A stretch of DNA of 34,541 nt, from the sequence record SRR31156797_4457, one strand, 5' to 3'. Below, piece by piece: positions 23,963 through 26,969 of this stretch. The translations under genes and the position numbers were made by a program. A model generated the notes under the pieces. The model was not told the origin of the DNA and did not search any database. It worked only from the letters and a program-made list of their open reading frames with translations. Numbering within the stretch: the stretch's first letter is position 1; each line of letters starts with the position of its first letter.

Positions 23963-24059
23963 TCGGTTTTTCTAATCAGTATACTATTGAAAACCCAAAA
24001 ATAAGCAGCTTATTATATTTCCCCAATAAATTATGTTGATGTTCGCTTATAAAGATGTT

Positions 24060-24428
24060 TTATTTTACAGCAGTCTTAGGTTCTTCACTTTTGCGATAAG
24101 TAACCACATCTACATCTTCAATATAGATAATTCCAGCACCTTCAGCTTTGTCGATCAGCCCGGATACAACTTTTGCAAAATCTTCAATTCTTTCTGCGAG
24201 GTCAATAATTTCAATAATAATAGGAGCTTCATCCGAAATTTCGTAGGTTTTAGAGGAATTACTTAAGCCATTGGCTCCATATCCCATTAAACCACGTGTA
24301 ACTGTAGAACCTGCTAAGGTGTATTTTTTTGCTGCAAAAACAATTGCTTCGTATAGTGAACGTTGATAAACGACTTCAGCCTCCCGGATGATGATCTTTA
24401 GTTTTTTTGCTTTCCCGTCTAAATTCAT
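24060..24428 (-). CDS. DUF190 (PII-like) domain protein
   Basis: KLKIIIRE, LYEAIV, LAGSTVTRGLMGYG, PIIIEIID. Confidence 0.85.
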   Translation of the reverse strand: MNLDGKAKKLKIIIREAEVVYQRSLYEAIVFAAKKYTLAGSTVTRGLMGYGANGLSNSSKTYEISDEAPIIIEIIDLAERIEDFAKVVSGLIDKAEGAGIIYIEDVDVVTYRKSEEPKTAVK

Positions 24429-24601
24429 AATGCCATCTTTTGTTGTGTTGATTAAAGAATTTGTGCTTATTCAAAATACAACTTATATTCCACACTATCA
24501 ACAATTACAATAAATACTTTAGAGGCGAAATTTTTATAAAAAATATGCTCATTTTAGGCCAAGTTTAACCTACGATTACTTGATTGTTATCTAAATATTA
24601 T

Positions 24602-24812
24602 TAATTTTGAAGGAGTCCTTAGAAACTGATTTGTATTTGGTTTAATCCTATCTCAAGTACAGGTTAGTTTCGTAAAATCCCTTAATTACTAACATGGTCA
24701 AAACAGCAAATCAAATATTCATGCAGTTACGGTGATTTAAACGGCCTGAATGTTGGGCTGTGAACGTGTTTGTTTAATTTGATTTGAATATTTGGCCGCA
24801 ATTCTTATGTTT
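24602..24812 (+). promoter_or_regulatory. fusA2 promoter (-7 TAATTTTG) and long structured 5' leader
   Basis: 18-bp stem 24622-24639/24654-24671; second long stem 24695-24716/24777-24798 with inner hairpin 24741-24761; G-U pairs favour a + strand RNA. Confidence 0.6.
24694..24735 (+). CDS. Putative leader peptide MVKTANQIFMQLR
   Basis: ATG with A at -3 in AT-rich context, 13 codons, ends CGG-TGA, overlaps the 5' arm of the second hairpin. Confidence 0.35.
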   Translation: MVKTANQIFMQLR

Positions 24813-26969
24813 ATGAAGGTATATCAAGCAAATCAAATTAAGAACATAGCCCTTCTCGGAAGTTCTGGCTCGGGTAAAACCACCCTCGCCGAGGCTATGT
24901 TATTTGAGGGTGGTGTGATTAACCGGAGAGGAGATATTGAGAATAGGAGTACGGTTTCGGATTATCACAAAGTAGAACATGAATACGGATATTCTGTTTT
25001 TTCATCCGTAATGCACACTGAATGGTTGGGTAAAAAACTCAACTTTATTGACTGTCCGGGTTCTGATGATTTCATAACAGGAGCCATTACATCTTTAAAT
25101 GTTACAGATACTGCACTAATGCTTTTAAACACCACTCAAGGTGTTGAAGTGGGAACACAAAATCTGTTTAGATATACCGAACAATATAAAAAACCGGTGA
25201 TTTTTATCGCCAACCAGCTCGATCATGAAAAATCCAATTTTGATCAAACCATCGATCAGGCTAAAGAAAGTTTTGGAAATAAGGTTGTTATTATTCAATA
25301 TCCTGTTAATGTAGGTGCAGACTTTAATGCATTGGTAGATGTGTTGAAAATGAAAATGTATCAATGGGGACCTGATGGTGGAAAGCCAGAAATACTCGAT
25401 ATCCCTGATGATCAAAAAGCTAAGGCCGACGAATTGCATAATGCCTTGGTTGAAGCTGCTGCTGAAAATGATGAAAACCTAATGGAGTTGTACTTTGATA
25501 AAGGTACTTTGGATGAGGATCAAATGCGTTCAGGAATTAGAAAGGGTTTAATTGCCCGGGATTTATTTCCTGTTTTTTGTGTGTCTGCGATTAAAGATAT
25601 GGGTGTTAGAAGGATGATGGAGTTTTTAGGAAATATTGTTCCGTTTGTTTCTGAAATGCCTAAAGCCATTACTAAAAATGCCGAAGAAGTTGAATGTTCT
25701 GCAGATGGGCCATCATCTATATTTGTATTTAAAACAAGCATTGAACCACATTTAGGAGAAGTTTCATTCTTTAAAGTTATGTCGGGCAAGGTGAGTGAGG
25801 GAATGGATCTGGTTAATATGACAAAAGACGCCAAGGAAAGACTTTCGCAATTATATTGTGTAGCCGGAAATACAAGAGATAAAGTTTCAGAACTGGTTGC
25901 AGGTGACATTGGTGCTACGGTTAAACTAAAGGAAACAAAAACAGGAGATACCCTTAACATTAAGGGATGTAATTATAATTTTGAGCCTATTCATTACCCA
26001 GAATATAAGTTTAGAACTGCCGTTAAGCCTGTAAATGAACATGATGATGAAAAATTAGGAGAAGTATTACAACGTATGCACGAGGAAGACCCCACACTCG
26101 TAGTTGAATATTCCAAAGAATTAAAACAAATCATTGTTTATGGTCAGGGAGAATTTCATTTGAATACAATGAAATGGCGAATTGAGCACAACGATAAGGT
26201 AGATATTGAGTTTCTTCGTCCAAAGATTCCATACCGTGAAACCATTACTAAAGCGGCGCGTGCAGATTACAGACATAAAAAACAGTCAGGAGGAGCAGGT
26301 CAGTTTGGTGAAGTGCATATGGTAATAGAACCTTATGAAGAAGGTATGTCGGAGCCAACAGGTTACCGTTTCGATGGACAGGAATTTAAAATGAATGTGC
26401 GAGGAAAAGAAGAAGTGAAGTTGCCTTGGGGAGGAAAACTCGTATTTTATAATTGTATTGTTGGAGGAGCGATTGATGCCCGTTTTTTACCAGCCATTTT
26501 AAAAGGCATTATGGAAAAAATGGAAGAAGGTCCGCTAACGGGTTCATATGCAAGGGATATTCGGGTTTGTGTGTATGATGGAAAAATGCATACAGTTGAT
26601 TCTAACGAAATATCTTTTAAATTAGCAGGCCGAAATGCATTTAGTCAGGCATTTAAAATTGCAGGACCTAAAATTTTAGAACCTGTGTATGAAGTTGAAG
26701 TGAAAGTACCTTCTGAAAAGATGGGTGATGTAATGAGTGATTTACAAGGTAGAAGAGCGCTAATTGAAGGAATGAGTAGTGAGAAAGGTTTTGAGGTGAT
26801 TAAAGCTAAAGTACCTTTGAAGGAATTGGATAAGTATTCCACTTCGTTGAGTTCAATAACGGGTGGAAGAGCTATGTTTACTTTAAAGTTTTCTAAGTAC
26901 GACATCGTTCCACATGACGTACAAGGTGAGTTACTAAGCGCTTACGAAAAGGAGCTGGAAGAAGTTTAA
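24813..26969 (+). CDS. fusA2: Elongation factor G paralog EF-G2
   Basis: EF-G domains (HKKQSGGAGQFG, DGKMHTVDSNEISF, LEPVYEVEV, GDVMSDLQGRR) with G1 GSSGSGKT, YGYSV for RGITI, DCPGS for DTPGH, NQLD for NKMD, and a domain IV insert. Start MKVY (24813) or 24807. Confidence 0.92.
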   Translation: MKVYQANQIKNIALLGSSGSGKTTLAEAMLFEGGVINRRGDIENRSTVSDYHKVEHEYGYSVFSSVMHTEWLGKKLNFIDCPGSDDFITGAITSLNVTDTALMLLNTTQGVEVGTQNLFRYTEQYKKPVIFIANQLDHEKSNFDQTIDQAKESFGNKVVIIQYPVNVGADFNALVDVLKMKMYQWGPDGGKPEILDIPDDQKAKADELHNALVEAAAENDENLMELYFDKGTLDEDQMRSGIRKGLIARDLFPVFCVSAIKDMGVRRMMEFLGNIVPFVSEMPKAITKNAEEVECSADGPSSIFVFKTSIEPHLGEVSFFKVMSGKVSEGMDLVNMTKDAKERLSQLYCVAGNTRDKVSELVAGDIGATVKLKETKTGDTLNIKGCNYNFEPIHYPEYKFRTAVKPVNEHDDEKLGEVLQRMHEEDPTLVVEYSKELKQIIVYGQGEFHLNTMKWRIEHNDKVDIEFLRPKIPYRETITKAARADYRHKKQSGGAGQFGEVHMVIEPYEEGMSEPTGYRFDGQEFKMNVRGKEEVKLPWGGKLVFYNCIVGGAIDARFLPAILKGIMEKMEEGPLTGSYARDIRVCVYDGKMHTVDSNEISFKLAGRNAFSQAFKIAGPKILEPVYEVEVKVPSEKMGDVMSDLQGRRALIEGMSSEKGFEVIKAKVPLKELDKYSTSLSSITGGRAMFTLKFSKYDIVPHDVQGELLSAYEKELEEV

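Follow-up and report, generated by a model that had tools for sequence, protein, structure and literature searches.

The stretch of DNA analysed here, called the window, comprises the 34,541 nucleotides of sequence record SRR31156797_4457, and its plus strand carries at 24813..26969 the gene fusA2, which encodes elongation factor G2 (EF-G2), a protein of 718 amino acids. This assignment, made in a first-pass annotation from the letters of the sequence, is confirmed by the NCBIfam model NF058620.1 (EFG2_Bacteroid, 'elongation factor G2' of Bacteroidota), which scores 1361.7 bits over residues 1-716 of 718, the curated whole-protein cutoff being 1000 bits. The nearest named relatives of the protein belong to Saccharicrinis sp. 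(88-90% identity), followed by those of other Marinilabiliaceae (74-80%), and because of the identity to the former the host is most likely a species of Saccharicrinis, a marine genus of the order Bacteroidales. The leader of this gene is a folded RNA of about 200 bases with a 13-codon upstream open reading frame (uORF), and it is kept across the genus. The element is genuine and conserved, and as a structured leader it is new to the literature searched: a scan of 24000-25200 against Rfam, on both strands and with E values up to 10, found no family that matches the element (the sole match, snoZ169, lies outside it on the minus strand and has 17.9 bits, the gathering score being 55), and the literature searched holds no description of a fusA2 leader and no paper that joins fusA2 with a uORF, nor did any full text searched join Saccharicrinis with elongation factor G. 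The earlier statement that no description of the element was known is thereby upheld.

Conservation in the intergenic region begins with a promoter block (24562..24609, plus strand, as are all parts of the leader) that ends in the -7 box TAATTTTG (24602-24609; 0.99 identity over 19 sequences), and transcription probably starts a few bases past this box, at about 24613-24617. Near the 5′ end stands the hairpin P1 (24622..24671), in which 24622-24640 pairs with 24653-24671 and which consists of 18 pairs, four of them G-U, with no mismatch, plus a 19th, G-U pair in the minimum free energy (MFE) structure. Because the four G-U pairs would read A-C on the opposite strand, the fold belongs to the RNA of the plus strand; the other strand of the leader has no open reading frame of at least 60 amino acids. 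P1 is followed by an A/U-rich linker (24672..24693; mean identity 0.71), the putative initiation region of the uORF, and then by the uORF itself (24694..24735), which runs from ATG to TGA with 13 codons and the stop, and encodes the peptide MVKTANQIFMQLR.

The 5′ half of the uORF forms one strand of a long stem. Within uORF codons 1-3, the 5′ strand of P2, TGGTCAAA (24695..24702), pairs with TTTGGCCG (24791..24798, or -22..-15 of fusA2), and within codons 5-8 the 5′ strand of P3, designated X (CAAATCAAAT, 24707..24716), pairs with ATTTGATTTG (24777-24786); the latter lies within a region designated Y (24773..24786, with ATTTGAT 0.92 identical), which is complementary also to fusA2 codons 6-10. 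The G+C-rich hairpin P4, ACGGCCTGA (24741-24749) with TTGGGCTGT (24753-24761), starts 5 nt past the uORF stop and is followed by GAACGTG, with no U run. The 3′ strand of the long helix spans -36..-15 of fusA2 and, in most species, also -8..-3, where UAAGUU pairs with AAUUUA of the linker in a six-pair extension. The fusA2 ATG at 24813 lies 14 nt past the end of P2, behind an initiation region (24799..24812) with U at -3 and A at -6, -12 and -13 that is conserved and common to the sister genera. All hairpins, the long stem and the uORF of the first-pass annotation are thus present where it had placed them, P1 gaining one pair. The alternative register that it also proposed, CAAATATTC (24712-24720) with GAATATTTG (24786-24794), exists in the window sequence, but GAATATTTG is not conserved in other leaders.

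The MFE structure of 24602-24830 computed with RNAfold holds P1 to P4 at -59.2 kcal/mol, compared with -44.3 +/- 4.2 kcal/mol for 200 dinucleotide shuffles (z = -3.5), one of which was equally good. P1, the long stem and the hairpin after the stop are predicted in each of 19 leaders of the genus folded singly. In a model-guided alignment of 20 leaders, 92.9% of the pair cells hold standard pairs, and double-sided changes occur in 23 of 46 pairs, compared with 6-9 in six slid controls (3′ partner moved by 1-3 columns) and 13.5 +/- 1.9 in column shuffles; the covariation score is 0.309 compared with 0.028-0.089 in the same controls, and none of 500 column shuffles reaches any of five covariation measures, all these values coming from an alignment that was fitted to the structure, which favours covariation there. 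P2 covaries also in an alignment made by MAFFT only, in which seven sequences have double changes at each of two pairs. The shared architecture of the single folds, together with the covariation, indicates a fold beyond chance.

Three helices, P1, P2 and P4, covary, with double changes in 8 of 10, 4 of 8 and 6 of 7 pairs, respectively. P1 is variable in sequence and kept in structure (93.1% of the cells of its model pairs are paired), the core of P3, CAAAU with AUUUG, is nearly invariant, and the six-pair extension is paired in 97.3% of cells with double changes at two pairs. No terminator-like site was found in 24300-25000 (0 sites). Since the spacer between the uORF stop and the stem of P4 measures only 1-9 nt across alignments, P4 is probably within reach of a ribosome terminating on the uORF.

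Among 21 distinct leaders, 18 hold the uORF unbroken at a length of exactly 13 codons, the others being L008 (a 1-nt deletion), L011 (TAA at codon 7) and L071 (15 codons), and among 19 alignable leaders its stop is TGA in 16 and TAG in three. Codons 3-6, which belong to the covarying strand of P2, vary almost freely, yet without insertions or deletions, and codons 7-13 read Q-I-F/L-M-Q/H-L-R/Q. In P2, the pairs made by the last two bases of the AUG and by the G after it either do not vary or do so on a single side, in contrast to their immediate 3′ neighbours, which covary. Relative to the window, identity amounts to 0.88 in codons 7-13 and 0.89 in the stop, and it falls to 0.65 just past the stop, 0.59 in P4 and 0.32 in the junction on the 3′ side; the uORF stop is therefore also the end of the conserved block, which sits in a loop, outside the supported helices. 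The arginine codon CGG before the stop, which had been presumed rare and proposed as a pause site, is found in only 8 of the 19 alignable leaders (CAG in 10, CGC in one), and this proposal is therefore abandoned. The uORF start has A at -3 and -6, which are positive determinants in Bacteroidia; positions -3, -6, -12 and -13, together with low structure at the start site, tune initiation in Flavobacterium johnsoniae (PMC6847099).

Several further observations concern the uORF. A second in-frame stop directly follows the first in 6 of 21 leaders (L007, L009, L014, L015, L018 and L019), giving TGA TAA, TGA TAG or TGA TGA. Record 4 of run X2, from a more distant relative, matches window 24300-24839 only at 24300-24368, 24711-24736 and 24810-24839, with unlike sequence of similar length between these stretches; the middle one corresponds to the 3′ half of the uORF and its stop, and the match again marks the end of the uORF as a conserved core. 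The four runs compared consist of DNA-like contigs, and X2 covers the intergenic region in full, as expected of DNA. An origin of the uORF as a duplicate of the fusA2 start was considered because of the 12-mer AGCAAATCAAAT, common in the window to the uORF and fusA2 codons 5-9, and was set aside as weak, since local alignment of the two beats shuffles only in the window (p = 0.000) and in L005 (p = 0.010), out of 20 species. Pairing of UUCAU in the uORF loop with AUGAA of fusA2 was dropped, since inspection by eye shows it broken in L002 and L003 and only partial in L010 and L017. The sequence of the sarcin-ricin loop is resembled by GAGAGGACCG of L014 and L018; this likeness is put down to chance, because the segment lies in the variable, covarying strand of P2 and differs in other species.

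A search with the leader DNA (24560-24830) hits 19 of the 23 genomes available for the genus, at 68-80% identity (100% in G001, the nearest one), and 0 of 18 genomes from outside the genus. A diverged leader is present in a 20th genome (G003, locus L071), giving 20 of 23; of the remaining three, one has no match and two have a contig that starts 13 nt before the fusA2 ATG. The latter are the draft genomes G023 (L069) and G015 (L070), whose contigs begin with the same bases, CGCAAACTTAAG, directly 3′ of the 3′ strand of the long helix, which points to an assembly break inside the leader. A covariance model built from nine leaders recovers all 20 loci of the genus supplied to it and, in a family-wide genome search, 16 of 16 genomes of the genus. 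With the same model, no leader turned up in 85 genomes that represent 24 further genera of the family, in 20 loci from beyond the genus, including 13 of other Marinilabiliaceae genera, or in EF-G2 loci of other families of the order (29 loci) and of other orders of the class (20 loci). One contig from a pattern scan of metagenomes adds the leader L152. Leaders of other lineages whose uORFs seem analogous though unrelated were compared by eye only. The first-pass annotation had suggested that leaders across Bacteroidia be aligned for the uORF and the pairing: promoter, hairpins, long stem and uORF are indeed conserved with compensatory changes within the genus, but they are not a general feature of Bacteroidia.

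In the sister genera the promoter block and the final ~15 nt ahead of the ATG are the same, but the leader measures only some 55-75 nt and has no uORF, which suggests that P1 and the uORF domain are additions peculiar to this genus. P1 is flanked on each side by a TCC(C)TTA-like motif (24614-24621 and 24677-24685), of which sister genera have one copy, right after the -7 box, as ACCCTTATT or ACCCATA. One possibility is that a short duplication accompanied the insertion of P1; another is that the motif is a conserved 5′-end element of the fusA2 mRNA of the family. A repeated mobile element was rejected as an explanation of the present-day element, because both the covariance model and BLAST find a single copy of the leader per genome (G001, G007 and G017).

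The only described control of fusA2 in Bacteroidales is transcriptional and is exerted by BT4338/Cur. EF-G2 is reportedly, in work by Han et al. from 2023, needed for gut colonisation by Bacteroides, where it is said to sustain a slow, GTP-sparing translation. In Bacteroides thetaiotaomicron, fusA2 is controlled by BT4338/Cur at the level of transcription under carbon limitation (PMC6989115), and this report contains neither 'leader' nor 'UTR'. Data on EF-G2 induction exist for Bacteroides (PMC6989115, PMC10994844), and fusA2 mRNA of B. thetaiotaomicron was co-purified with the small RNA MasB (PMC10994844). Induction by carbon starvation, to which the first-pass annotation appealed, is documented for Bacteroides only (PMC6989115). 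In the window, the core TGTTN4AACA of the Cur/BT4338 box (TATGTTnTAnAACATA-like) is absent from the 350 nt upstream of fusA2. In a search for the exact core only, TGTTN4AACA was found upstream of EF-G2 at 17 of 29 loci of other families, in which it lies ~100-130 nt upstream (range 99-231), at 0 of 13 loci of other genera of Marinilabiliaceae and in one of 20 leaders of the genus. The Marinilabiliaceae share the fusA2 promoter block CTTGnnTGTTATCTAAATATTAnTAATTTT (window 24562-24609; L077-L086, L107, L116 and L123).

The accessibility of the fusA2 start was estimated from computed ensemble energies, in which a mask over the uORF mimics a ribosome on it. Across 20 species, opening of -18..+12 costs on average 11.4 kcal/mol when the long helix is enforced (state A) and 7.4 kcal/mol when the uORF is masked, and for -25..+12 the corresponding means are 14.1 and 8.2 kcal/mol. 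When the helix is not enforced, a marked drop in cost under the mask is seen in only some species, such as L007, L014, L018 and L019 (from 11-12 to 5-7 kcal/mol). With 60 nt of coding sequence added, a second arrangement, conformation B, appears: in the MFE structures of the window, L002, L006 and L071, Y (24773-86) pairs with a segment Z in fusA2 codons 6-10 (24829-24842; 14 bp in the window), and the 3′ arm of P4 pairs as well, with CATAGCCC (24845-52), so that the coding partner extends over 24829..24852. Both states come within 1-5 kcal/mol of the energy of the free ensemble. Of the cells of conformation B, 81.5% are paired over the 21 leaders, compared with 28-45% in slid controls, and its coding side is almost invariant. 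The duplex has a mean energy of -22.1 kcal/mol, compared with -12.2 kcal/mol for shuffled leaders, and a control coding window (+50..+90) gives -19.9 kcal/mol. Conformation B, the pairing of the 3′ strand with fusA2 codons 6-14, is thus put forward as a hypothetical competing state on the basis of folding predictions.

The beginning of fusA2 has a peculiarity of its own. In the 20 species, the fraction of minor synonymous codons is 0.045 in codons 2-12, 0.115 in codons 15-40 and 0.32 in codons 15-400; only 6 of 331 equal-length windows are as low, and codons 2-8 are invariant (codons 2-40 correspond to window 24816-24932). Constraint at the level of RNA seems to reach about 100 nt into fusA2.

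In our preferred reading, the likelihood of which we put a little short of even, the leader acts as a ribosome-dependent translational attenuator of the EF-G2 mRNA. It has a short open reading frame with a usable start (A at -3 and -6) that is kept in 18 of 21 leaders; this frame overlaps one strand of the covarying P2/P3 helix, the partner strand lies beside the fusA2 start (-36..-15 and mostly also -8..-3, the start codon being outside), a hairpin is placed within reach of the terminating ribosome, and there is no terminator. Taken together, these features suggest the logic of translational attenuation. In the scheme envisaged, transcription would begin just past the -7 box, P1 would cap the 5′ end, and the unstructured A/U-rich linker would offer the AUG of the uORF to a ribosome that loads during transcription. 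Codons 1-8 of the uORF would serve as the 5′ strand of P2 and P3, and their 3′ strand would be made some 80-100 nt later. Should no ribosome be on the uORF by the time the 3′ strand appears, P2, P3 and P4 would close and bury the start of the uORF along with the upstream half of the fusA2 initiation region, a state that would be off and self-locking. If instead a ribosome lingers on the uORF, owing to slow elongation, termination or recycling, the helix would be blocked and P4 would be melted by the terminating ribosome; the freed 3′ strand would then remain single or pair with fusA2 codons 6-14, leaving -25..+12 open for Shine-Dalgarno-independent initiation, and the gene would be on. Both translation of the uORF and the identity of the active state are what we infer in this scheme, and the signal, at a guess, would be a reduced capacity for translocation or recycling.

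A more specific version of this scheme, which we consider unlikely, takes the leader as a gauge of translocation and recycling capacity, in which a ribosome that lingers on the 13-codon decoy frame or at its stop would flip a nearly isoenergetic two-state RNA and thereby induce EF-G2 when EF-G or GTP becomes limiting. The 3′ strand would, as modelled, pair with the uORF in one state and with fusA2 codons 6-14 in the other.

Several of the results weigh against attenuation by the uORF. In the window, masking of the uORF changes nothing in the cost of opening the start (6.8 kcal/mol) unless the helix is enforced, and the 3′ strand of the helix stops 14 nt short of the fusA2 start codon. The insensitivity of the window can be explained by competition from conformation B: with the coding region included, the window, L002, L006 and L071 already favour that conformation at equilibrium, and the mask is without effect. 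For -15..+20, opening costs 11.6 kcal/mol in state B compared with 5.1 kcal/mol in state A, which is opposite in sign to the result for -18..+12, so that the energies do not settle which state is on. The pairing of conformation B includes a single double-changed pair (A-U 11, G-U 3 and G-C 2) and does not exceed shuffles. Codon statistics do not single out the frame of the uORF and show no signature of selection on the peptide, since the variants in frame 0 are 7 synonymous to 35 non-synonymous with one stop, compared with 6 to 35 with two stops in frame 2. The uORF is broken in two of 21 leaders, L008 and L011, both from draft assemblies in which an error and a real loss look alike. The mechanism of the first-pass annotation, in which a ribosome slowed on the uORF frees the fusA2 start, thus remains plausible and is partly supported: the mask lowers the cost of -18..+12 from 11.4 to 7.4 kcal/mol, but the start codon lies outside the stem, the sign reverses for -15..+20, and the details of the CGG codon and of the alternative register fail.

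Some of these points would be expected if the folded leader acted without translation of the uORF, either as an element that stabilises the mRNA or directs its processing or as a standing brake relieved by a small RNA, a protein or temperature. This alternative, which is somewhat unlikely and nevertheless carries appreciable weight, would have the short frame persist because its bases are bound by pairing. Half of the uORF is indeed a helix strand, two leaders have a broken uORF, and selection on the peptide has left no signature at the level of codons. P1 is located at the 5′ end of the transcript, and stabilising hairpins usually sit at the 5′ end of an mRNA. The co-purification of fusA2 mRNA with MasB in B. 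thetaiotaomicron also provides a precedent for RNA control in trans (PMC10994844). However, the best-conserved stretch of the leader, codons 7-13 with the stop, is in a loop and belongs to no supported helix, and conservation ends at the stop codon; moreover, the frame is fixed at 13 codons, its variable codons are free of insertions and deletions, the stop switches from TGA to TAG and is not lost, and the pairs of the AUG are invariant while their neighbours covary. It is also conceivable, though quite improbable, that the uORF governs transcription elongation, with the ribosome blocking or permitting the loading of Rho on the untranslated stretch of ~75 nt, in the manner of tnaC, a leader peptide that acts at termination. 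With its conserved C-terminal half and fixed stop position, the uORF peptide resembles such termination-acting leader peptides, and in the absence of an intrinsic terminator any transcriptional control would need Rho. The uORF toiL couples translational repression to Rho termination (PMC12121999). The uORF stop is, however, followed by the G+C-rich P4 and by no C-rich unstructured stretch, and the covarying long-range helix beside the fusA2 initiation region would be left unexplained.

The covarying stems around conserved unpaired nucleotides are also the usual signature of a riboswitch, so that 24694-24798 might be an aptamer for a metabolite or nucleotide, for example one that reads the pool of guanine nucleotides or alarmones, and the open reading frame coincidental; sensing of guanine nucleotides would presumably suit a paralog of EF-G. 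That no Rfam family matches at E values up to 10, that the conserved unpaired bases are found on the 5′ side only and coincide with the open reading frame, that the opposite junction is variable in both sequence and length (identity 0.32) and that the element is limited to one genus make this very doubtful. Finally, the short leaders of sister genera, with the same promoter and last ~15 nt and no uORF, the inverted repeat GGTC...GACC formed by the ends of the inserted domain and the TCCCTTA-like motif that flanks P1 would all agree with a neutral relic, left when sequence such as an inverted duplication or a small palindromic element was inserted into an ancestral leader of ~60 nt. Compensatory changes that maintain P1, P2 and P4 across 20 species are unlike neutral decay, the non-coding identity across the genus is 68-80%, and there is one copy per genome and none elsewhere; such an origin without function is therefore highly improbable.

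The attenuator proposed here resembles several known systems in its logic. Closest to it in mechanism are the cat/cmlA/ermC attenuators and toiL of E. coli, and among Bacteroidales the leader of the tetQ operon of CTnDOT. In the attenuators of cat-86, cmlA and ermC, a ribosome held on the leader open reading frame opens a helix that occludes the downstream initiation region, and in these, as in the fusA2 leader, a short leader open reading frame overlaps the 5′ strand of a helix whose other strand lies by the downstream initiation region. There is no homology of sequence or structure between them, and the fusA2 leader differs in that it makes no use of a Shine-Dalgarno element, its helix stops 14 nt short of the start codon, the AUG of the uORF is inside the helix and the gene under control is a chromosomal one for a translation factor. 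The genes tet(M) of Tn916, hflXr and those of ABC-F proteins are controlled by attenuators composed of a leader peptide and an intrinsic terminator; they share with fusA2 a short open reading frame ahead of a factor that acts on stalled or slow ribosomes, but these leaders, as well as those of the trp/pyrBI type, have an intrinsic terminator that the fusA2 leader lacks. The leader of tetQ-rteA-rteB on CTnDOT, the peptide of which is much shorter than that of the uORF, is a further case of a leader that precedes a member of the EF-G GTPase superfamily.

The tetQ operon belongs to the same order as the present leader, and it is constitutively transcribed and subject to translational attenuation, being translated only on a translation-related signal (PMC3809561). 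It is tetracycline-inducible and resides on a mobile element, in contrast to the chromosomal, genus-specific fusA2 leader, with which it has no sequence similarity; the superfamily member encoded there is TetQ (PMC3809561). In topAI-yjhQ of E. coli, the uORF toiL is likewise a proposed sensor of general translation stress, at which stalling remodels the structure at the downstream ribosome-binding site (PMC12121999). The toiL system is shown by experiment, coupled to Rho and concerned with another gene in a proteobacterium that uses Shine-Dalgarno pairing, and has no sequence relation to the fusA2 leader (PMC12121999). The BT4338/Cur system controls the same gene family, but it does so transcriptionally, through a 22-bp box upstream of the -7 element (PMC6989115).

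The leader implies that at least one lineage of Bacteroidales has added a post-transcriptional layer to the control of EF-G2, and this lineage is one in which the Cur box was not found by the exact core search. If the ribosome-sensing model is true, the leader would be a compact natural case of structure-based translational attenuation that is independent of Shine-Dalgarno pairing, and it would tie the sensing of translation capacity to an alternative elongation factor. If the gauge reading is also true, it would close a feedback loop in which a shortage of a translation factor is sensed by the ribosome itself, in a phylum that initiates without Shine-Dalgarno pairing. The restriction to one non-model marine genus limits the immediate impact of the finding.

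Three minor features of the locus may be added. An additional ATG, in frame and two codons ahead of the conserved fusA2 start (ATGTTTATG, 24807-24812), is present in the window and, among leaders of the genus, in that of G001 only, the others having AAGTTTTATG or TGTTTTATG instead. The divergent upstream neighbour (24060-24428, minus strand) encodes a DUF190 (PII-like) protein (PF02641, 78 bits), and this gene seems to be located upstream also in the sister genera, judging by their upstream sequences. The canonical G3 motif of EF-G is D-T-P-G-H, and in the EF-G2 of the window (25050-25064) it reads D-C-P-G-S, with serine in place of the catalytic histidine; this change would be in line with a GTPase-deficient paralog.

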